A stretch of 33,318 bases of DNA from Eubacteriales bacterium (lineage in GTDB: Bacteria; Bacillota; Clostridia; Oscillospirales; CAG-382), in assembly GCA_045653405.1 (NCBI GenBank), contig JAZOLW010000066.1, forward strand, positions 1-33,318, given 5' to 3'. The translations under genes and the position numbers were made by a program. The first letter of the stretch is position 1; each line of letters starts with the position of its first letter. Below, one piece after another: positions 83 to 26,032 of the stretch. Under the pieces are notes generated by a model, which was not told the origin of the DNA, ran no database searches, and saw only the letters and a program-made list of their open reading frames with translations.

Positions 83-1081
83 ATGGCATTGTTTGAAAGC
101 TATGAAAGACGCGTTGACAAAATCAATGCAGTTCTTAAGGAATATGGCATTTCTTCCATCGAAGAATGTAAAGAAATCACACTTGCAAAGGGTATCGACT
201 GCGATAAGATCGTAAGAGAAACTCAGCCTATCTGCTTTGAAAACGCAGTATGGGCATACACAGTAGGTTGCGCAATTGCAATCAAGTCAGGCTGCACAAA
301 GGCTGCTGACGCTGCTGCCGCTATCGGTATCGGCCTCCAGGCTTTCTGTGTACCCGGTTCTGTTGCTGAAAACCGTAAGGTTGGTCTCGGTCACGGTAAC
401 CTCGGTAAGATGCTTCTTTCCGAAGAAACAGAATGCTTCTGCTTCCTTGCAGGTCACGAATCCTTCGCAGCTGCTGAAGGCGCTATCAAGATTGCTCTTA
501 ACGCAAACAAGGTTAGAGTAAAGCCCCTCAGAGTTATCCTCAACGGTCTTGGTAAGGATGCTGCATTCATCATTTCCAGAATCAATGGCTTCACATACGT
601 TGAAACTGAATTTGATCCTTATACAGAAGAAGTTAAGGTTGTATACGAAAAGCCTTACTCCAACGGCCCCAGAGCAGACGTTAAATGCTACGGCGCTGAC
701 AATGTTCCCGAAGGCGTTGCAATTATGAGACTTGAAAACGTTGGCGTTTCCATCACAGGTAACTCAACTAACCCCACAAGATTCCAGCATCCTGTTGCAG
801 GAACATACAAGAAGTGGTGTAACGAAAACGGCGTAAGTTACTTCTCAGTTGCTTCCGGCGGCGGTACAGGTAGAACACTTCATCCCGATAATATGGCTGC
901 AGGTCCTGCATCCTACGGTATGACAGATACAATGGGAAGAATGCACTCTGACGCTCAGTTTGCAGGTTCTTCTTCCGTTCCTGCTCACGTAGAAATGATG
1001 GGTCTCATCGGCATGGGCAACAACCCCATGGTTGGTGCTACAGTTGCTTGTGCAGTTGCTGTTGAAGAAGCAAGCAAGTAA
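83..1081 (+). CDS. GGGtGRT protein (function unknown)
   Basis: Contains the namesake motif SGGGTGRTLHPD, plus FLAGHESFAAAEG and MMGLIGMGNNPMVG; SD AGGAGG upstream; strongly biased codons. Confidence 0.95.
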   Translation: MALFESYERRVDKINAVLKEYGISSIEECKEITLAKGIDCDKIVRETQPICFENAVWAYTVGCAIAIKSGCTKAADAAAAIGIGLQAFCVPGSVAENRKVGLGHGNLGKMLLSEETECFCFLAGHESFAAAEGAIKIALNANKVRVKPLRVILNGLGKDAAFIISRINGFTYVETEFDPYTEEVKVVYEKPYSNGPRADVKCYGADNVPEGVAIMRLENVGVSITGNSTNPTRFQHPVAGTYKKWCNENGVSYFSVASGGGTGRTLHPDNMAAGPASYGMTDTMGRMHSDAQFAGSSSVPAHVEMMGLIGMGNNPMVGATVACAVAVEEASK

Positions 1082-1101
1082 TAAATAATACCATATAAAT
1101 A

Positions 1102-1138
1102 AAAAACACATTCTGAAGTAAATTCGGAATGTGTTTTT
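1102..1138 (+). terminator. Intrinsic terminator (possibly bidirectional)
   Basis: aaaaacacattctgaa-gtaaa-ttcggaatgtgttttt hairpin with T tract just after the stop codon. Confidence 0.85.
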
Positions 1139-1210
1139 GTGTTTATTTGAAGTAGTCGTTTCACAACTGTTACTTTAATTATACAACAGAAAAACATCAC
1201 TGATACACTC

Positions 1211-1267
1211 GTCAATATACGAGTCACGATTGACGAGTATATTGACAAATAAAGAGGCTTCGCCTCC
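1211..1267. repeat. 57-bp hairpin repeat, copy A
   Basis: gtcaatatac...gtatattgac stem followed by a gaggc-ttc-gcctc hairpin; 49/57 ungapped identity to 4877-4933. Confidence 0.85.
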
Positions 1268-1348
1268 AAAAACCACACAAAACCACATTTATACAAACGC
1301 AAAACAACAAAAATGTCGAACAAAACACGAAAAATATCAAAAATCCCC

Positions 1349-1377
1349 TTGACAAAGAGGACGGGCTGTTATATAAT
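1349..1377 (+). promoter_or_regulatory. Sigma-A promoter of the BMC operon
   Basis: TTGACA-17 nt-TATAAT, perfect consensus, with A-tract-rich DNA upstream. Confidence 0.85.
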
Positions 1378-1459
1378 ATAATAGAAATAAAAGTATATGT
1401 GGAACTGTGAGTGTTTTTAGTGTTCCCGTATGTGTTATAGGAAAGGACGGCAGATCAGT

Positions 1460-2848
1460 ATGATGGACGAAAAGTATGTCAGCGAGATTGTCGCAAGCGT
1501 TGTTAAATCAATGGCAACCGGCAGCGGCGCCAAGAAGCAGAAGGGCGTATTTCCCACAATGGCAGAGGCGCTGGAGGCTGTTCAGAAAGCATATATTCAG
1601 TATAAGGGCTATAGCATCGAGCAGAGAGAAAAGATGATTTCTAAAATCAGAGAACTCACTCTTGCAGAAGCTGAAGTTATGGCTGAAATGGGCGTTGAAG
1701 AAACAGGCATGGGCAGAGTTTCCGATAAGATTATCAAGCATCAGCTCGTTGCAAATAAAACTCCCGGTACAGAGGATATTCATCCCAGCGCATTCTCAGG
1801 CGACTGCGGTCTTACCCTTGTTGAAATGGCTCCCTACGGTGTTATCGGAAGTATCACTCCTTCTACAAACCCCAGTGAAACAGTTATCTGTAACTCAATC
1901 GGTATGATTGCAGGTGGTAATGCAGTTGTATTCAATCCTCATCCCAATGCCTGCAAGGTTGCAAACTACGCAGTAGACCTTGTTAACCGCGCAATTCTTG
2001 AGGCAGGTGGTCCTGAAAATCTTGTCGTTACAGTTGAAAAGCCTACAAAGGAAAGCTCCGATGAAATGATGGCTTCTCCTGCGGTTAAAATGCTTGTTGC
2101 AACAGGCGGCCCCGGTGTTGTTAAGGCGCTCCTTTCTTCAGGTAAGAAGGCAACCGGTGCAGGCGCAGGTAATCCTCCTGTAATTGTTGACGATACAGCA
2201 GATATTGAAAAGGCTGCAAAGGATATTGTTGCAGGTGCAAGCTTTGATAACAATCTTCCTTGTATCGCTGAAAAGGAATGTTTTGCGTTCGATAATATCG
2301 CAGACGACCTTATCAAGTATATGACACAGAACGGTGCTTACCTTATCAAGGGCGAACAGATTGACCAGCTTGTAAAGGTATGCCTTGTTGAAAAGAACGG
2401 CAAGTATACAATCAATAAGAACTGGGTAGGCAGAGATGCTTCAAAGTTCCTTAAGGCTATCGGCATTGAAGCTGATGCAAGACTTGTTATTGCTGAAGTT
2501 CCCGAAGACCATCCTTTCGTATATGAAGAAATGATGATGCCCGTACTCGGTATCGTAAGAGTAAAGAACATTGACGAAGCAATTGCAATGGCTTGCAAGG
2601 CTGAACACGGAAACAGACATTCCGCACATATCCACTCAAAGAACGTAGATCACCTTACAAGATTTGCAAAGGCTGTTGAAACAACAATCTTCGTAAAGAA
2701 TGCTCCTTCCTATGCAGGTATAGGTGCTGGCGGCGAAGGCTATACAACCTTTACAATTGCAGGTCCTACAGGTGAAGGTCTTACAGCAGCACACTCCTTC
2801 ACAAGACAGAGAAGATGCGTGCTTGTTGACGGTTTACATATTGTTTAA
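1460..2848 (+). CDS. CoA-acylating aldehyde dehydrogenase, EutE/PduP family (BMC-associated)
   Basis: ITPSTNPSET, ATGGPGVV, GAGAGNPP, catalytic FDNNLPCIAEKE, TIAGPTGEG; N-terminal amphipathic helix (EKYVSEIVASVVKSM) like an encapsulation peptide. Start placed at ATG 1460/1463 after AGGAAAGGA. Confidence 0.93.
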   Translation: MMDEKYVSEIVASVVKSMATGSGAKKQKGVFPTMAEALEAVQKAYIQYKGYSIEQREKMISKIRELTLAEAEVMAEMGVEETGMGRVSDKIIKHQLVANKTPGTEDIHPSAFSGDCGLTLVEMAPYGVIGSITPSTNPSETVICNSIGMIAGGNAVVFNPHPNACKVANYAVDLVNRAILEAGGPENLVVTVEKPTKESSDEMMASPAVKMLVATGGPGVVKALLSSGKKATGAGAGNPPVIVDDTADIEKAAKDIVAGASFDNNLPCIAEKECFAFDNIADDLIKYMTQNGAYLIKGEQIDQLVKVCLVEKNGKYTINKNWVGRDASKFLKAIGIEADARLVIAEVPEDHPFVYEEMMMPVLGIVRVKNIDEAIAMACKAEHGNRHSAHIHSKNVDHLTRFAKAVETTIFVKNAPSYAGIGAGGEGYTTFTIAGPTGEGLTAAHSFTRQRRCVLVDGLHIV

Positions 2849-2876
2849 GATACGTAAGATTTGAGGTATTACATAG

Positions 2877-3536
2877 ATGAAAGCATTAGGAATGGTTGAA
2901 GTTTACAGCTTCACAACAGTTGTACGTTGCGCAGACATAATGGCAAAAACGGGCAATATCAAGATTATAGCTTTTGACAGAAACAGACCTTTCGCAAAGG
3001 GATTCCCTGTACCCCTTATTATGGCGGTTAAGATTGAAGGCGATGTTGCTGACGTTAAGGCGGCAGTTGAAGCGGCAAAGGCTTATGCCGAGAGCAAGGG
3101 ACACTATATTGTTTCCCACATCATACCCAATCCCGGCGAGGATGTGGACAAGATGGCGTTCCTCAATGATATAAACAGAGATAAGTTCAACAAGAAGCTC
3201 CCCAAGAACTTCAGAGACCTTAAGGAATGCCCGAGATTTCAGGGTGATAACGCTATTGCGCTTCTCGAAGTTGAAGGTCTTGTTGCTTCCATTGAAGGTC
3301 TTGACTCAATGCTCAAGACTGCAGAAGTAAGACTTGTTCACACAGAAAAGAGACTTGGCGGACGTCTTGTAACACTTGTTGTTGCAGGTAAGGTTGACGC
3401 TGTTACAAGTGCGCTTGAACACGGCATGGCAACAGCAGAGCCTCTCGGTCCTGTTTACGGAACAGAGGTTATTGCTAATCCTCACCCCGAACTTCTCAAG
3501 TTCTTTGATATGGGCGAAGGTTCTATCGTAGAATAA
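2877..3536 (+). CDS. Tandem BMC-domain shell protein (two non-permuted PF00936-type domains)
   Basis: Domain 1 ALGMVE...ADIMAKT...EGDVADVKAAVEA...IPNP; domain 2 AIALLE...LDSMLKTAEV...GKVDAVTSALE...IANPHPE; linker of roughly 35-40 aa. Confidence 0.9.
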   Translation: MKALGMVEVYSFTTVVRCADIMAKTGNIKIIAFDRNRPFAKGFPVPLIMAVKIEGDVADVKAAVEAAKAYAESKGHYIVSHIIPNPGEDVDKMAFLNDINRDKFNKKLPKNFRDLKECPRFQGDNAIALLEVEGLVASIEGLDSMLKTAEVRLVHTEKRLGGRLVTLVVAGKVDAVTSALEHGMATAEPLGPVYGTEVIANPHPELLKFFDMGEGSIVE

Positions 3537-3557
3537 GCCTGAAAGGTGGTATCGTCA

Positions 3558-4196
3558 ATGTATGATGAAAAAATAATCGCCGAGGCGGTAAGAAAAGCGA
3601 TGGAACAGCTTTCGTCCGACGATAAGAATCAGATAAAAATCGGTGTATCTGCAAGACACGTACACCTTTCAAGAGAAGACCTTGACATACTTTTTGGCAA
3701 GGGATTTGAGCTTACAAAGAAGAAGACACTTATGGGCAGAGAGTTTGCATCCGACCAGGTTGTAACACTTGTTGGTCCGTCCCTCAGAGCTATTGAAAAT
3801 GTAAGAGTTCTCGGACCTGTAAGAAAGAACACACAGGTTGAGATTTCAAGAACTGATACATTTGTACTTAAAGTTAGCCCTCCCGTTAGACCTTCCGGCG
3901 AGATAGCAGGTTCAGAAAAGGTTGTAATTGTAGGCCCTAAGGGTTCTGTATATCTCAAAGAAGGCGTAATTATTGCCAACCGCCACATCCATCTTACTCC
4001 CGAATATGCTGAAAAGAACGGCATCAAGGACGGGGATTATGTAGATGTATTGGTTGACAGTGTGAAGCCTACAAAGTTCTTTGATGTTCAGGTAAGAGTT
4101 CGTGATGACTTCAATGTGGAAATGCATATTGACACAGATGATGCAAACTCTGCAGGACTCAAAAACGGAGATCTTGTAACCATCATAAAGAAGTAA
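3558..4196 (+). CDS. pduL: Phosphate propanoyl/acetyltransferase PduL
   Basis: SARHVHL, GPVRKNTQVEISRTD, ANRHIHL, EMHIDTDDANS; N-terminal helix EKIIAEAVRKAMEQL like an encapsulation peptide; SD AGGTGG before ATG 3558. Confidence 0.93.
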   Translation: MYDEKIIAEAVRKAMEQLSSDDKNQIKIGVSARHVHLSREDLDILFGKGFELTKKKTLMGREFASDQVVTLVGPSLRAIENVRVLGPVRKNTQVEISRTDTFVLKVSPPVRPSGEIAGSEKVVIVGPKGSVYLKEGVIIANRHIHLTPEYAEKNGIKDGDYVDVLVDSVKPTKFFDVQVRVRDDFNVEMHIDTDDANSAGLKNGDLVTIIKK

Positions 4197-4246: not shown

Positions 4247-4297
4247 ACCTTCCCCGTTTCGGGGAAGGGGGACCACACGAAGCGTGGTGGATGAGGT
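4247..4297. repeat. REP-like GC-rich palindrome
   Basis: ccttccccg-ttt-cggggaagg, then ccac...gtgg and ggatgagg; the layout resembles CCTTCCCC/GGGGAAGG REP-type repeats. Only one copy in this window. Confidence 0.55.
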
Positions 4298-4300
4298 TAT

Positions 4301-4844
4301 GCCGAGTAGAAGGGATTTTTCGCCACTGCGATGGCGAGTTACTTTGCGTGAGCAAAGTAACCAAAGTCACGAGGGCTTAGCCCTTCGAACCCGCGCGTGT
4401 CAATTAAAATCACTACCAACTACTTCTAAACTTTAATCAAATGAGTGATTTTTGAGATTGACACGCGGTGCGAAGTGCGGTTGTACATAAACGCAAAATA
4501 AACTTTCACCTAAAGTGATATACGCATCAGGCGTAGTGCTTAGTGCAATTTGTTTTTTTGCAAATGTACACCTATGTCGGTTGCAAGTTATAATGTTTTG
4601 ATTTGTACAAATTTTAAGCTATGTGCCACTGATAAACTATTGATATAATCTGATATTCGCTGAAACCTCTTTGTGGCAGCGCAGTTGCACTTATATATGC
4701 GTGTCAATTTTAAAATTTTCTCATTTTGCTGAAATTTTGATAAAGTTGCACGGGAAATTTTTATTGACACGCTGGGGTCAAGGGAGCTCCCTTGCAATTT
4801 TGGTTACTTTGTTTGCACAAAGTAATCCGCCGGAGGCAAAAACC
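4301..4844. repeat. Non-coding inverted-arm element (MITE/REPIN-like or structured RNA), copy 1
   Basis: Collinear with 9669-10237; 4333-4391 matches 9702-9760 at 58/59; left and right arms are imperfect reverse complements. Confidence 0.88.
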
Positions 4845-4876
4845 TGATTTAAATGAGAGTATCATTGTTGCTCTCA

Positions 4877-4933
4877 GTCAATATACGAGTACCATTGTAC
4901 GAGTATATTGACAAAGAAAGAGGCTCCGCCTCC
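4877..4933. repeat. 57-bp hairpin repeat, copy B
   Basis: Direct repeat of 1211-1267; differences fall in the loops and the linker. Confidence 0.85.
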
Positions 4934-5012
4934 GCAGTGGCGAAACACTCCCTCTAAAAAAATGTCACTTCGCTTTTGCATATTGATATTATCATATCTG
5001 CATAAATATACA

Positions 5013-5045
5013 AAGAGAGCTGTGACTTTCCGTCACAGCTCTCTT
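5013..5045 (-). terminator. Terminator of the pot operon
   Basis: Perfect 14-bp stem aagagagctgtgac/gtcacagctctctt 4 nt after the potD stop. Confidence 0.8.
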
Positions 5046-5049
5046 AACG

Positions 5050-6252
5050 TTAATAGTCAATTTTGGACTTTCTGTGCTTTCTCACAACATAGAGAATAAC
5101 AAAAATTGCAAGTGCAAGCAAAATGATGATTGTAAGAGGGAATATAGTGCTGTCAAAGGAGCTTGTCGCTCTTACTCTCAGCCACATTACCTCCATAAGG
5201 GAAGTAGCGTAGTCACCAAGATTTACATAAGATTCCGAGTTTGCAATATCCTGCTCTGTAGGATAAACTCTCTCATCAATCTCCACTATTTCACTCGCCG
5301 CAGTGTGCGGTGTAAAATATGAAATGTATTCACAGTTGGCAACTGCAATTTCTGTTTCGCAAAGGAAGTTTATAAATGCTTCCGCCGCTTCTTTGTTTCT
5401 TGCTCCTTTTGGGATGCAAAGGGAGTCAATAAACTTGTTCACACCCTCTTTGGGATAAGCAAACGCAAGGTTTTCGTTTCGCTCCATCATAGTTATACAG
5501 TCACCTGCATAGTAGGGGGCAGCATAAGCATTTTCATTTGCCATCTTGTCAAATGTCTGGTCCATTGCATAAGCCTGATTTACAGCCTTCTGTGCTGTAA
5601 GAGCTTCTGCTGCTTCTTCAAGCTCATCGGCATTTTCGGAGTTAAGCGAATATCCAAGCTTCTTGAGAGCGATACCGAAAGCATCACGGCTGTTACCAAA
5701 CATCAACACCTTGCCGGCAAGTCTTTCGTTCCACAGAACATCCCAGGATGACGCTTCTTCTGCAGTTACATACTTTGTGTTGTATACAAGACCAACCATA
5801 CCCCATGTGTAAGGCACTGTGTACTCGCCGTTGGGGTCAAAGTCAACGTAGCGGTATTCATCTGCAATGTAGTGTATATTGGGGATATTGTCAAAATTTA
5901 TTTTTTCAAGTCTGTCTTCGTCAATAAGACGGGCTATCATATAGTCTGACGGAATAATTATGTCATACACCGAGCCGCCGTGTGTAATCTTGGCGTACAT
6001 ATCCTCGTTTGTATCAAACAGTGTGTAATTGACATCAATTCCCGAAATTTTTTCAAATTCTTCAACAACGTCAAGCGTTCCGTCTGTTCCGTCGGAAATG
6101 TATTCACCCCAGTTGTAAACATTGAGTGTTATATCCTGACCACGGAACTTTTCATAATAGCTTTCGTCATCAACAGTTACATCTGCAAATGCTGTAAGTG
6201 ACAGTGCAACAGCAACAATGCAGAGTAACAACGAAATATATTTAATTTTCAT
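5050..6252 (-). CDS. potD: Spermidine/putrescine ABC transporter substrate-binding protein
   Basis: LNVYNWGEYI, DIIIPSDYMI, PYTWGMVG, YPKEG; signal peptide; C-terminal TM helix. Confidence 0.92.
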   Translation of the reverse strand: MKIKYISLLLCIVAVALSLTAFADVTVDDESYYEKFRGQDITLNVYNWGEYISDGTDGTLDVVEEFEKISGIDVNYTLFDTNEDMYAKITHGGSVYDIIIPSDYMIARLIDEDRLEKINFDNIPNIHYIADEYRYVDFDPNGEYTVPYTWGMVGLVYNTKYVTAEEASSWDVLWNERLAGKVLMFGNSRDAFGIALKKLGYSLNSENADELEEAAEALTAQKAVNQAYAMDQTFDKMANENAYAAPYYAGDCITMMERNENLAFAYPKEGVNKFIDSLCIPKGARNKEAAEAFINFLCETEIAVANCEYISYFTPHTAASEIVEIDERVYPTEQDIANSESYVNLGDYATSLMEVMWLRVRATSSFDSTIFPLTIIILLALAIFVILYVVRKHRKSKIDY

Positions 6253-6282
6253 TTAGTTCCTCCATATTCAGTGTTACACCAT

Positions 6283-7083
6283 TTATTTCTTTGCAGCGCC
6301 CAGTGCCTTTTTCTTTTCTTTCTCGAATTTCATATCCACAAGGTTGTAAACGAGAAGAACTGCCAGTACGCATACGAACATAAGGGTGGAAAGCGCATAA
6401 ATTGTAGGTGTTACCTGTTTCTTTGTCATACTGTAAATCACGATAGGAAGTGTCTGGGACGTTGTTCCTGACGTAAAATAGCTGATAACAAAGTCGTCTA
6501 TGGAATAGGTGAGTGCCATTAGAAAGCCTGATACGATACCCGGCATTATTTCGGGAATAACCGCCTTCATAAACGCCTGCCTGCGGTTGCAACCAAGGTC
6601 CATTGCCGCTTCGTAAAGGCTTACATTCATTTGTCTGAGCTTAGGAAGTACACTGAGAACAACTGTCGGCACACAGAATGTAATGTGTGCAAGAATCAGC
6701 GTTGCAAAGCCCGATGACATCTTGAAGTATGCGAAAAGCAACATAAGAGAAATACCTGTTACGATTTCAGGGTTAAGTATCTGAATGTAAGTAAGTGTTC
6801 TCATTGTGCCTTTTGACATCTTCTTCATTCCGTGAATACCGAATGCTGCCATTGTACCGAGAATTGTAGCAAATACCGATGCGGTAAGAGCAACAATCAG
6901 GGTATTTATAAAGGATGAAATAATTTCCTCGTTTTTAAAGAGTTCAACATACCACTTTGTAGTAAATCCCGTCCAGGTTGCACCCTTACTTGAATTGAAA
7001 GAGAATACAATCAGTATAAGAATGGGCACATAGAGAAATGCAAAGCAAAGGGCTGTGTAAAATCTGGAGAATAAGTTTTTCAT
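6283..7083 (-). CDS. potC: Spermidine/putrescine ABC transporter permease
   Basis: FLYVPILILIVFSFN, EAAMDLG, SIDDFVISYF; operon position. Confidence 0.92.
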   Translation of the reverse strand: MKNLFSRFYTALCFAFLYVPILILIVFSFNSSKGATWTGFTTKWYVELFKNEEIISSFINTLIVALTASVFATILGTMAAFGIHGMKKMSKGTMRTLTYIQILNPEIVTGISLMLLFAYFKMSSGFATLILAHITFCVPTVVLSVLPKLRQMNVSLYEAAMDLGCNRRQAFMKAVIPEIMPGIVSGFLMALTYSIDDFVISYFTSGTTSQTLPIVIYSMTKKQVTPTIYALSTLMFVCVLAVLLVYNLVDMKFEKEKKKALGAAKK

Positions 7084-7901
7084 TTAATCGAATCCTCCAT
7101 TTCATCACTGTCAAACTGATTGAGTATACCCATACTGATAAGCACCACAATCATAAGGATAAGGGAGGTAGCGCTTCCTGCGTGGAAGCCTACACCTTTA
7201 AGTTTGAACTGTTCTTCGATGAGGTCACCGATAAGGTAGCAGTCGCTTCCGCCGAGAAGTCGGGAGATGATAAAGGTACTTACACAAGGAACAAATGTCA
7301 TTGTGATACCTGTTGCAATACCCGGAAAACTCAAGGGGAATATAACTTTCTTGATAACAGTCATAGGACTGCATCCAAGGTCCTGCGCCGCCTCAATAAC
7401 GTGGTTGTCAATCTTTGTCATAATTGAAAACAGAGGCATAATCATAAATGGCAGGTAGTTGTATACCATACCGAGCACCACGGCACCCGATGTGTTTATA
7501 AGCTGAAGCTGTGGGATGCCGAAAAATGCCAGAATATTGTTTATGATACCGTTGTCTTCAAGAATTGTCATCCAGGCATATGTTCTGAGCAGAAAGTTCA
7601 TCCACATAGGGAGCGTTATGAGAAGCATAAACACTCTCTGAACAGCGGCAGACTTTCTTGACATAATAAACGCAAGGGGATAGGCAATTATAAGACAAAC
7701 AATTGTTGCCATAAAAGCAAGGCATATGGATTTTATAAGTACAGGGAGAAAATAACTAGAATCAATTACATTGTCAAGTGTAAAGGACCCGTTTTTGTGA
7801 TTGGTAAACGCATAGTAGATTACCAGTATAAATGGAATAATTGTAAAAAGAACTATCCAGATAATGTAGGGCAGGGCAGTGAATTTAGCTGATTTTTTCA
7901 T
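7080..7901 (-). CDS. potB: Spermidine/putrescine ABC transporter permease
   Basis: [31 protein letters not shown]; start placed at MKKSAK (7901), overlapping the potA end. Confidence 0.92.
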
Positions 7902-8991
7902 TTCCTTCGCCCTCCATGGTAAGCTCTGCGTCAAGCACAGTGCCGGAAGCGTAGCTCTTATGCATTATGTGGATATCTTCGGGAGTGAGAGACATTCCGA
8001 TAAATGAGCCGACCTCTGCGGACTTTGTGGAGTGAATTTTCCACTTTGTGCCAAAGCTGTCAACAATAATTTCAAAATGTACACCCTTGAAGGTAACAGT
8101 TTCAACGGTTCCGTCAATAGTGTTGTCGGAAGGCTCGGTAACTCTGATGTCTTCGGGACGGATTACAACGTCAACCGGTTCCATCTTGTCAAAGCCCTTG
8201 TCAACGCAGACAAAATGCTTGCCTGCAAACTCAACGTCGAAGTCGTCGTGCATAATACCTGCCACAATGTTGCTCTCTCCGATAAATCTTGCAACAAATG
8301 TGTTGGCGGGTTCGTTGTATATATCTTCAGGAGAGCCTATCTGGTCAATGCGGCCTCTGTTCATAACAACAATACGGTCACTCATTGTCAGTGCTTCTTC
8401 CTGGTCGTGTGTAACGTAAATAAAGGTAATACCCAGCTGCTGCTGCATACGTTTAAGTTCTATCTGCATTTCTTTTCTCAACTGAAGGTCAAGAGCACCT
8501 AACGGTTCATCGAGAAGAAGTATTCTCGGATGATTGATAAGTGCGCGGGCAATTGCAACTCTCTGCTGCTGACCGCCTGAAAGAAAATCAACTCTCTTCG
8601 CACCGTAACCTTTGAGGTTAACAAGCTCAAGCATTTCAAGAACTCTTGTCTTGATTTCTTTTTCGGGAGTTTTCTTCAGTCTGAGACCGAAAGCGATATT
8701 TTCAAATACGTTCAAATGTGGGAAAAGTGCGTATTTCTGAAAAACAGTGTTAACCTGTCTTTTGAAAGGAGGCACATTGTTTATCAGTTTCCCGTCGAAG
8801 AAGACCTGTCCTTCGTGAGGCTCAATAAAACCGCCGATTATGCGAAGCGTTGTGGTCTTACCGCAGCCGGACGGGCCTAAGAAGGTAATAAATTCCTTGT
8901 CGTGGATATCAAGATTGATACCCTTTAAAACCTGCTCATCGTCATAGTTCATAACGATGTCTTTCAGACTAACAATTACACTTTTATCCAA
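7885..8991 (-). CDS. potA: Spermidine/putrescine ABC transporter ATP-binding protein
   Basis: Walker [29 protein letters not shown]-like tail; TTG start after GGAGGTG. Confidence 0.95.
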
Positions 8992-9135
8992 TCTTCACAC
9001 CTCCGCACCGTGTTGCTTTGCGGTGCATTTCCGCCGTGGGAGTTCCCACAGCTAAAACCCTCAAATCCTCGTGCAACATTCAGATTAAGGCAAGGGTGTT
9101 TGTATACAATAATCACATTGTATCAAAGTAAGATA

Positions 9136-9164
9136 ATAATACATATTGTGACACAATAATTCAA
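9136..9164 (-). promoter_or_regulatory. Probable sigma-A promoter of potABCD
   Basis: Minus strand TTGAAT-17 nt-TATTAT; the spacer holds the palindrome tattgtgacacaata. Confidence 0.55.
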
Positions 9165-9221
9165 TGATAAAATGGGACTAATATGTTAATAAATATAATA
9201 TGTAAGAATGAACATATCTGC

Positions 9222-9250
9222 TTTACAAAACATAAGGGGTGTGATATAAT
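9222..9250 (+). promoter_or_regulatory. Sigma-A promoter (extended -10)
   Basis: TTTACA-17 nt-TATAAT with TGn before the -10. Confidence 0.75.
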
Positions 9251-9286
9251 ACGAAAGAATAAGATAAACAGGAGATAATAAACAGT

Positions 9287-9631
9287 ATGCTGAATAAATT
9301 AAAGGCTTTTTTCTGCACCAAAAACAAGCAGACTGAAATAAACAGGCAGATTGCATCAAAGCTTCATAATATGCACGTCAAGTACATATCCGAAAAGGAT
9401 GAAAACGGAGTAGATACAATTATCGGCAGGAGCTGTCATATAAATATACTTGGTGAAAAAGGCGACGAGCTGTGTGCAAGCTGCGGTATTCAGACGGTGT
9501 TCAGACTTAAGATTGACGAAATGAACATATGGGAGTTTATGAGCCTTGACGGATGTGTTATAAGGTTTACCGATATTGACACAGGCACAGAGCGGAATGT
9601 CACCGTTTATTATGACAAGCATCTGACATAA
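9287..9631 (+). CDS. Hypothetical protein, 114 aa
   Basis: Own promoter, SD AGGAGA, host-like codons; no family recognised. Confidence 0.8.
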   Translation: MLNKLKAFFCTKNKQTEINRQIASKLHNMHVKYISEKDENGVDTIIGRSCHINILGEKGDELCASCGIQTVFRLKIDEMNIWEFMSLDGCVIRFTDIDTGTERNVTVYYDKHLT

Positions 9632-9658
9632 AAGCCTCATTTGTCTAAAAAGAGGAAA

Positions 9659-10237
9659 GCTCGGCTTCGCCGAGCAGGATGGATTATTTCGCCGTCAAGG
9701 CGGCGAGTTACTTTGCGTGAGCAAAGTAACCAAAGTCACGAGGGCTTCGCCCTTCGAACCAGCGCCCGTCAATTAAATTTTCTTTGATGTTGCATCTAAA
9801 GTTATGCAAAGTGAGAAAATTTTAAGATTGACGGGCGGTTCTTTGTGCGGATATATATTAACGCAACCGCATTTAAGCCTAAAGTGAAATCAATATCAGG
9901 CGTAGTGCTTTGTGCAATTCTTGTTGTCTGTCTGATGTACACCTTTGTCAGTTGCTCGTTCCGATAGTTTTGTTTGTGCCATTTCAAAACTATCTGCTAC
10001 TAATAAATATTGATATAATCTGATATTTCACTAAAACTTCTTTGTGGCAGTGCAGTTGCACTTATATATGCGCCCATCAATCTCAAAATTTTCTCACTTG
10101 GTGAAACTAAAAAATTAATTGGTAAGAAAATTTAATTGATGGGCGCAGGGGTCAAGGGTGCTCCCTTGCGGTTTTTGGGTTCTTTTGTCCGAACAAAAGA
10201 ACCCAAAAACCGCAATGGCGAAATTTTCTTTCTGCTC
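9659..10237. repeat. Non-coding inverted-arm element, copy 2
   Basis: Homologous to 4301-4844; outer ends gagcaggatggattatttcgcc and ggcgaaattttctttctgctc are inverted; perfect 23-bp stem at 10166-10215. Confidence 0.88.
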
Positions 10238-10251
10238 CTCGTATTTTCTTC

Positions 10252-10280
10252 TTGACAAAATCTTGTCACAGTGCTATAAT
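10252..10280 (+). promoter_or_regulatory. Sigma-A promoter of the permease
   Basis: TTGACA-17 nt-TATAAT with TGn; a tgacaa/ttgtca inverted repeat overlaps the -35. Confidence 0.85.
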
Positions 10281-25943: not shown

Positions 25944-26032
25944 TTTGACTTTCCCTGACCTTGATTAAATTATAAGCCGAAAGTCAAAGAAAGTCAAACA
26001 ATACGAAAGTCAAAGAAAGTCAAACTTTGACC
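25944..26032 (-). promoter_or_regulatory. ctsR operon sigma-A promoter with CtsR boxes
   Basis: Minus strand TTGACT (25992-25997)-17 nt-TATAAT (25969-25974); several RGTCAAA-NAN-RGTCAAA heptad pairs. Confidence 0.92.

Follow-up and report, generated by a model that had tools for sequence, protein, structure and literature searches.

On the 33,318-nt contig JAZOLW010000066.1 from the assembly of a Eubacteriales bacterium (GCA_045653405.1), analysed here at full length and called the window, two diverged non-coding stretches of about 0.55 kb raise the question of whether they are copies of a mobile DNA element, genes for a structured RNA or something else. A preliminary description of the sequence held that selection acts on their secondary structure, and proposed either a non-autonomous mobile element resembling transposable elements of the miniature inverted-repeat type (MITEs) and doublets of repetitive extragenic palindromic (REP) sequences forming hairpins (REPINs), or a large multicopy structured RNA. 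The analysis reported here favors, at a probability of roughly 60%, a lineage-specific, non-autonomous interspersed repeat of the kind to which MITEs, bacterial interspersed mosaic elements (BIMEs) and the pneumococcal BOX elements belong. The source assembly comprises 1.28 Mb in 102 contigs and is 68% complete, so that all genome-wide counts and absences given below refer to the assembled part.

The two stretches, copy A (positions 4301-4844) and copy B (9659-10237), are indeed collinear from end to end and in the same orientation: their MAFFT alignment has a mean column identity of 80%, and a BLAST search of the genome with copy A recovers copy B with 76% identity over positions 1-521 of 544 nt (E = 8.0e-92). 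The four compensatory stem pairs quoted in the preliminary description can all be read in both copies, where they differ by paired substitutions (copy A vs. copy B: tcgccA..Tggcga vs. tcgccG..Cggcga; gcgTGtcaat..attgaCAcgc vs. gcCCGtcaat..attgaCGGgc; aaTCACt..aGTGAtt vs. aaTTTTCt..aGAAAAtt; ttactttgt..acaaagtaa vs. ttcttttgt..acaaaagaa). The claim that no open reading frame (ORF) is shared also stands, as none of at least 30 aa lies in matching place and frame; the single peptide stretch common to both copies is encoded by conserved DNA of the M2 and M3 hairpins described below, and its starts differ between the copies. A BLAST check of the genome for further copies turned up many, and the family occupies about 30 loci rather than two: copy A alone gives 69 matches, and the merged matches of both copies define 32 loci. 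A profile of the element's core (nhmmer) finds 27 places, namely 13 full copies, 7 short forms, 5 copies cut by contig ends and 2 degenerate or weak ones, while a covariance model of its longest hairpin, M4, finds 37 copies and the complete set of module profiles places one or more modules at 53 loci. At word lengths of 16, 20 and 24 nt, every one of the genome's most frequent k-mers derives from this family, and many copies lie at contig ends, as is expected because repeats break assembly.

A full element is about 0.55 kb long (0.65 kb with a nested module) and consists of two inverted arms of ~140 nt around a non-palindromic core of ~230 nt. Loops included, the right ~140 nt mirror the left ~140 nt as their reverse complement (arm complementarity 71-77%), and each copy is a long imperfect inverted repeat, a property that had been missed in the preliminary description; folded as single-stranded DNA, copy B reaches -132.5 kcal/mol vs. 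-64.3 ± 4.5 in shuffles (z = -15.1). Each arm is a string of hairpins, M1-M4, the core is made up of Ca or Cb, CL and CR, and the smaller modules M0 and M6 are nested or adjacent, so that the order from left to right, which is fixed across copies, reads (M0), (CTCGGC..GCCGAG hairpin), M1, M2, M3, M4, Ca/Cb, CL, CR, M4', (M6), M3', M2', M1'. M1 has the form TCGCC-N6-GGCGA, M2 is GTTACTTTTGT..ACAAAAGTAAC with variants, M3 is either CGAGGGC..GCCCTTCG or CAAGGGAG..CCCTTG, and the M4 hairpin, 75 nt long, has stems of 11 bp (outer) and 9 bp (inner), an internal loop that is asymmetric and an apical loop that is semi-conserved. CL (~75 nt) is followed by CR (~100 nt), which carries a TTGATATAAT box, and Cb, the alternative to Ca, is an M6-like module. 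M0 and M6/Cb are also met solo; in all, M6 has 15 genome matches including the query, and M0 has 12 genome copies at 77-100% identity. M0 is more uniform than the large element, as 11 of the 12 copies share 87-100% identity, and 8 of the 12 lie beside a large-element end in the module map, which suggests a younger family with a preferred landing place. The right limit of copy A had been set at 4844 and has to be moved: the copy extends to its true terminus at ~4956, because an M6-type module of ~100 nt (4826-4926) separates M2' from the terminal M1' hairpin. This nested module holds a minus-strand terminator-like hairpin (site 4933..4919).

The proposition that selection acts on secondary structure proves right for the arms and does not hold for the ~175-nt CL+CR core. 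For M4, pairs were counted in 35 of the 37 copies (two lie outside the stored loci) on a given two-helix structure, amounting to 679 cells, and compared with 500 shuffles. The stems are paired in 95.7% of cells vs. 84.3 ± 0.8% in shuffles, and 65 cells are changed on both sides vs. 16.5 ± 3.2, with none of the 500 shuffles reaching either value; double changes are spread over 9 of 20 pairs, and sliding the partner by 1-3 columns as a control lowers pairing to 37-55%. Pair counting on the M2-M3 alignment was dropped, since MAFFT misregisters the stem subtypes, and perfect hairpins per copy were counted instead: those of M2 type with at least 8 bp number 46 in the genome vs. 0 in a shuffled genome and comprise at least four common stem variants, each perfectly paired. 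The loops, which had been said to diverge freely, do so to a lesser degree than that wording implies, as the M4 loop keeps a semi-conserved consensus. In the CL+CR core, RNAalifold on the 13 full copies finds compensatory change in 1 of 28 predicted pairs on the plus strand and in 0 of 15 on the minus strand, yet in windows of 15 nt the core has a mean pairwise identity of 0.67-0.88, on a par with the M4 stems, the loops and Ca lying at 0.3-0.6 (conservation profile of 10 of the 13 full copies, those with both M4 hairpins inside the contig). Because the core is equally conserved with next to no compensatory pairs, selection on pairing is demonstrated in the arms alone, and the core is conserved as sequence. 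CL and CR were also compared as possible diverged tandem duplicates; their local alignment scores 24 vs. 17.4 ± 3.3 in shuffles, 23 of 500 of which reach it, a borderline value from which nothing is claimed.

These properties bear directly on the structured-RNA alternative, which finds no support: the arms are true inverted repeats, wobble pairs are not favored and the core lacks covariation. Among 700 M4 cells, 15 are G-T and 10 are A-C, so that G-T is not clearly in excess, and in the right-arm M4 the counts are 10 and 4, numbers too small for the split by side, in which one right arm (C35) was counted as left, to give a usable strand signal. The mirror symmetry of the arms, which includes the loops, is a trait of a DNA element that an RNA gene does not need. 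The Rfam check was run over the whole window and gave no match to a curated family at gathering scores; in E-value mode only weak generic matches appear, for copy B mostly to microRNA precursors, all far below gathering scores. A multicopy small-RNA gene riding on the repeat would be a different matter, and we regard it as quite unlikely. Here, a TGnTATAAT box in CR would start an RNA of ~150 nt that runs through M4' and ends at the T-run of M3', with the conserved, single-stranded CUUUGUGGCAGUGCAGUUGCAC as the seed. Of the 13 full copies, 11 preserve the TTGATATAAT box together with the next 50 nt, both window copies score as terminator-like on the plus strand at M3' and the TTTT(T)GG behind it, and conservation of the core without structure is what a seed or promoter would display. 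However, the promoter scan does not call the box, whose -35 region is poor, the short forms are conserved despite lacking CR, right-arm M4 wobble leans, on those small numbers, toward the opposite strand, and Rfam holds no match. In one RNA sequencing run, copy A is left uncovered by contigs and copy B is covered in part, at about 1x, contig cover being no measure of expression.

In the genomes searched outside the source genome, the element was not found. BLAST detects it in 0 of 40 relatives (12 of the same genus, 12 of the same family and 16 of the same order), a single 30-nt match in one of them (E = 3e-4) being read as chance; the M4 covariance model, with 37 matches in its own genome, has none in 120 other genomes of the family; and copy B has no BLAST match in 400 genomes of the order, with two candidates scored per genome. 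M6 matches none of the 12 same-genus genomes, and plasmid and phage collections are likewise without a match to the family. As the relatives are samples that include partly incomplete genomes, the family is best described as not found in those searched rather than as absent. Pattern scans, exact or degenerate, of collections from which the window's own species may be left out gave no match to a core 22-mer among public genomes and viral contigs and none to a CL 21-mer among metagenome contigs. An M4 20-mer has one genome-contig match, in a Fenollaria record with no neighboring module, and a gapped M4 pattern has 13 metagenome matches, all at or below 16.6 bits against the M4 profile and with no module beside them, which are read as chance; both were set aside. 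The first hairpin of M0 has three matches of 28-30 nt (90% identity), spaced over less than 800 nt of a single genome among the 12 of the same genus (G008:C29:10971-11765), the sole trace of any module outside the window's genome. Judged by these searches, the repeat family appears restricted to this genome or lineage among the genomes searched. Gut-metagenome runs, several labeled bovine gut, contain relatives of the window at ~90-99% identity. In three such DNA runs from three studies, contigs with the flanking genes stop at the element borders, and in two of them (X1 and X3) the summed contig depth over the repeats is ~5-13x that of the flanks; the family is therefore multicopy in the X1 and X3 samples too.

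How the copies arose can be read in part from their make-up. The left M4 of copy A is identical to the left M4 of a copy on contig C89, and the recurrence of identical or near-identical M4 hairpins at different loci, together with the fixed module order, shows that the composite is copied whole. Two arms taken from one element resemble each other no more than two taken from different elements (0.686 vs. 0.694, 10 elements), neither the arm subtypes nor the M4 variants keep to one side of the core (identity left-left 0.71, right-right 0.74, left-right 0.70), and the nearest neighbor lies on the same side in 24 of 35 cases. Alternative blocks, Ca or Cb and two versions each of two CL sub-blocks, add to the mosaic. 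As the arms are not side-specific and blocks alternate, parts must have passed between copies, whether through ectopic recombination or because the core inverted between its arms. Taken further, the latter route leads to invertible cassettes, in which the ~140-nt arms would be recombination sites and the asymmetric core with its promoter-like box would flip. Inverted repeats around such a core, and arms distributed as flipping or arm exchange would yield, speak for cassettes of this type. They are nevertheless very unlikely, as the shuffled arms are accounted for just as well by ectopic recombination between copies, copy A and all seven short forms face gene 3' ends, and no small invertase was found in the assembled genome, its recombinases being one phage-type tyrosine integrase and one serine recombinase of the large type, truncated at a contig end. 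In known invertons the repeats are short (10-30 bp) and regulated genes lie next to them.

The copies sit in intergenic DNA, mostly at gene 3' ends, where they then decay, exchange arms and receive nested M0 and M6/Cb modules. All 26 scored core copies lie between ORFs, the sole overlap being with one spurious 108-aa ORF, and of the genes downstream of the core, on the CR side, 13 are convergent and 6 co-directional. Each window copy had been described as lying in an intergenic gap after a plus-strand gene; both are intergenic, yet copy A, which does follow a plus-strand gene, faces a convergent minus-strand gene (5050-6252). The seven short forms, which are internal copies (on contigs C33, C68, C98, C101, C78, C55 and C100), keep only the left arm, Ca/Cb and CL; their break points cluster to within ~20 nt at ...CAGTTGCACGTTCCGAT, or positions 130-150 of the core profile, and another copy (C35) retains only the CR end and the right arm. 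The ORF downstream of the short forms is convergent in 7 of 7, with its stop codon 4 nt (C68) to ~640 nt (C98) past the break, and in C33 and C68 no other terminator lies between the convergent gene and the element. The copy A region has 8 terminator-like sites vs. 0.7 expected. The hairpins probably serve as transcript-end structures for neighboring host genes, and a non-mobile origin might be sought here, with intergenic hairpin cassettes selected by the host as terminators or stabilizers of mRNA ends and spread and homogenized by recombination only. The short forms abutting the stop codons of convergent ORFs, the two of these ORFs that lack a terminator of their own before the element, and the excess of terminator-like sites would all fit. 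For a unit of 0.55 kb to stand with its modules in fixed order at 20 or more unrelated loci, however, some mechanism must copy it, the 12 same-genus genomes in which the family was not found have ordinary intergenic DNA, and the region of the CitMHS transporter promoter, which follows copy B in the window, is without the element in the closest relative, all of which makes a non-mobile origin highly improbable.

Core orientation agrees with GC skew in 9 of 26 copies and with gene-strand bias in 11 of 26, so that no bias is apparent. As a separate observation, 21 of 26 core copies with E ≤ 1e-8 lie on the plus strand of their contigs, though contig orientation should be arbitrary. At four element loci that were compared (copy A, copy B and those on C24 and C5), the gene order of same-genus genomes changes at or next to the element, the flanks mapping either to separate contigs or beside other neighbors.

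We infer mobility from copy number, dispersal and architecture. On the favored reading of a non-autonomous interspersed repeat, an enzyme acting in trans and encoded outside the assembled part would copy the element, as a unit of DNA, to places around the chromosome; stems and core would be kept since only copies retaining them are recognized and recopied, and selection would then act among the element's own copies, on DNA hairpins or binding sites. The generic traits of a MITE are present in size, lack of coding capacity, terminal inverted repeats and many dispersed copies, while a related autonomous insertion sequence (IS) or transposase with matching ends was not found in the genome, plasmids or phages searched. 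Several results weigh against such a mobile repeat. Contigs of three DNA runs and one RNA run show no empty site, as none joins across or skips either copy, though contigs of this kind speak neither for nor against empty sites, and the same-genus genomes are not syntenic at copy A, copy B or the C24 and C5 loci, so that they offer no clean empty site either; cross-copy joints in metagenome contigs come from other family members. On reading 9 left and 15 right termini, no consistent target-site duplication emerged, the ends being blurred by neighboring modules, and there is no near-identical pair of copies at different loci, the best pair, at 94%, being maybe two strain versions of one locus. 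Profile searches for Y1_Tnp (PF01797), the TnpB zinc ribbon (PF07282), IS110 (PF01548), rve (PF00665) and DDE_Tnp_1 (PF01609) have no hit in the assembled genome, with positive controls that responded (for PF01797, in 6 of 14 known genomes), and an all-against-all comparison of 1195 ORFs reveals no repeated protein family save for contig-end overlaps. Finally, a core as conserved as the stems is unlike the decaying interior of an ordinary MITE, and neither the common break point of the short forms nor arms without side preference are predicted by a plain cut-and-paste MITE.

The preliminary class of a MITE- or REPIN-like non-autonomous element remains the best one, given a multicopy, non-coding sequence outside Rfam; from the REP/REPIN group proper the family departs in the size of its units, in the unpaired tag and, so far, in the RAYT gene. 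If these were REPINs or BIMEs in the strict sense, the hairpins would be REP-like units recognized on single-stranded DNA by a single-copy Y1 transposase of the HUH class (RAYT or IS200 type), and the composite would be their mosaic. Short imperfect palindromes in alternating orientation, clustered and nested in the 53-locus map, stems kept by compensation, and an asymmetric internal and semi-conserved apical loop in M4 that resemble those of protein-recognized hairpins would agree with this. The REPs described in PMC3733652 are imperfect palindromes of 20-40 nt with an unpaired GTAG or CGTC tag, found mostly downstream of genes and in the gaps between convergent or unidirectional ORFs, a placement shared, as far as that account goes, by the elements studied here. 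Their units, at 16-75 nt, are much larger, however, and no GTAG or CGTC tag is found unpaired at the hairpin feet, CGTC occurring only paired in some M4 stems, where it varies (GGTC, TGTC, CATC). The lack of PF01797 hits in the assembled 68% of the genome and the unbiased orientation, where lagging-strand targeting by a Y1 enzyme predicts a bias, count in the same direction, and we consider this unlikely, if the least so of the alternatives.

Set against known systems, the family shares with IS200/IS605-derived palindrome-associated transposable elements (PATEs) a reliance on hairpins rather than on simple terminal repeats; PATEs are not known to give target duplications, and no consistent one was seen at the ends read here. 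PATEs have subterminal hairpins, are not known to carry terminal inverted repeats and insert in a single orientation with respect to replication, whereas the present elements have inverted-repeat ends and unbiased orientation, and searches of the assembled genome turned up neither a Y1 nor a TnpB gene. Like the BIMEs and the REPIN-RAYT system of Escherichia coli, they are mosaics of imperfect palindromes in alternating orientation, able to fold into larger structures; a REPIN, however, is two REPs with a short spacer, while here hairpins of up to 75 nt flank a long, conserved, non-palindromic core, no GTAG/CGTC tag is seen and no RAYT gene was found in the 68% assembled. With prokaryotic MITEs as outlined in PMC10969869 they have in common that they are small, non-coding, multicopy and intergenic, with terminal inverted repeats and strong predicted folding, and they would be "type II" in the sense used there, as no related IS is known; they differ in that no target duplication is seen, in the unusual length of inverted repeats that are built from local hairpins, in a conserved interior and in the recurrence of a one-armed short form. 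The closest analogues appear to be the pneumococcal BOX, RUP and SPRITE repeats, with the BIMEs and REPINs of Proteobacteria also close. The pneumococcal repeats are portrayed in PMC3049150 and PMC10969869 as modular, hairpin-rich, nested in one another and near species-restricted, with one terminator-like family. In the terms of these accounts, both sets are non-coding, intergenic Firmicute repeats, confined to a species with its closest kin (here, among the genomes searched), whose small families cluster and insert into one another, the terminator-like one being M6 here, and for BOX no dedicated transposase is identified. There is no sequence similarity, and BOX is given there as A-B(n)-C with a variable number of B units, whereas the order here is fixed, the ~140-nt arms are exact inverted partners enclosing a unique, sequence-conserved core of ~230 nt, and copies are fewer (~30 loci in the 1.28 Mb assembled).

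The surroundings of the two copies are those of a chromosomal housekeeping region in a spore-forming, Clostridia-like organism, with genes for SpoIVB, CtsR, ClpC, BMC/PTAC, LytB, an S1 protein and a topoisomerase; the features of both copies are listed in Table 1. A microcompartment-type gene run (83-4196; GGGtGRT-family gene, aldehyde dehydrogenase, BMC shell protein and PTAC phosphotransacylase) stops just before copy A. After copy B, a perfect TTGACA-17-TATAAT promoter with an upstream TG (10252-10280) precedes the CitMHS transporter gene; G005, the closest same-genus genome, retains this promoter region, with another gene upstream of it and without the element. At 25978-26025, two exact tandem copies of the 22-nt unit CGAAAGTCAAAGAAAGTCAAAC lie just upstream of a minus-strand operon (25924 down to 21319) of ctsR, a UVR-motif gene, an ATP:guanido phosphotransferase gene and clpC. 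These repeats resemble CtsR operator repeats.

Table 1. Positions of the repeat modules within the window.
Feature	Position	Strand	Basis
M0 module, two small hairpins, beside left end of copy A	4248..4298	+	nhmmer module map
Copy A left terminus and M1 hairpin (TCGCC-N6-GGCGA)	4307..4338	+	inverted-repeat pair with 4927-4956; end alignment
Copy A M2 (TTACTTTGCG..CAAAGTAA) and M3 (CGAGGGC..GCCCTTCG)	4339..4392	+	module map, alignment
Copy A left M4 long hairpin	4391..4471	+	covariance model R1, 95.9 bits; pair counts
Copy A Ca segment; Cb (M6-like) here in other copies	4472..4525	+	alignment, module map
Copy A core: CL 4526-4601, CR 4602-4700 with TTGATATAAT box; non-palindromic, sequence-conserved	4526..4700	+	nhmmer, conservation profile
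Copy A right M4', inverted copy of M4	4694..4776	-	model R1, 73.2 bits
Copy A M3' (CAAGGGAGCTCCCTTG) and M2' (TTACTTTGT..ACAAAGTAA)	4777..4825	-	sequence reading, module map
Nested M6-type module in copy A right end	4826..4926	+	direct repeat with 1211-1267; 15 genome matches including itself
Copy A M1' hairpin, true right terminus	4927..4956	-	30 nt, 80% complementary to 4307-4336; right-end alignment
Copy B outer left arm: GCTCGGC..GCCGAGC hairpin, M1 9678-9705, M2 9706-9733, M3 9739-9760	9659..9762	+	module map, ends
Copy B left M4	9760..9841	+	model R1, 88.4 bits
Copy B core: Ca 9839-9893, CL 9894-9971, CR 9972-10071	9839..10071	+	nhmmer 9839-10069, E 5e-66
Copy B right M4'	10067..10148	-	model R1, 89 bits
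Copy B outer right arm: M3' 10153-10168, extended M2' (arms 10163-10188 and 10193-10218, 96% complementary), M1' remnant, terminus	10149..10232	-	inverted repeat, end alignment
Solo M6-type module between GGGtGRT gene and aldehyde dehydrogenase gene (both +)	1196..1267	+	direct repeat; 86% identity to 4861-4933

A more interesting version would make the element a self-propagating cassette, in which a conserved asymmetric core with a promoter-like box, possibly giving a hairpin-terminated RNA of ~150 nt, lies between recombinogenic multi-hairpin arms, the core flips or swaps arms, and the hairpins are recognized by an enzyme outside the known Y1 and DDE families. We judge this improbable and keep it alive because of the conserved core, the recurrent one-armed form next to convergent gene ends and the lack of side preference in the arms; if true, one repeat family would equip some thirty places on the chromosome with outward transcription, or RNA ends, that can be switched. 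The repeat family itself is real and well supported. As it stands, the interspersed repeat favored here is of an ordinary kind, and what is new is the sequence family: it belongs with the bacterial non-autonomous hairpin-mosaic repeats, and appears new insofar as Rfam and the collections searched hold no match. For the organism, an uncultured animal-gut bacterium with a Clostridia-like genome, the family constitutes the dominant repeats and is a plausible cause of the many contig ends inside copies. It adds a Firmicute case of nested modular hairpin repeats beyond pneumococcal BOX, RUP and SPRITE, and its three traits beyond the simple MITE model make it a reasonable test case for the copying of hairpin repeats without an evident Y1 transposase.

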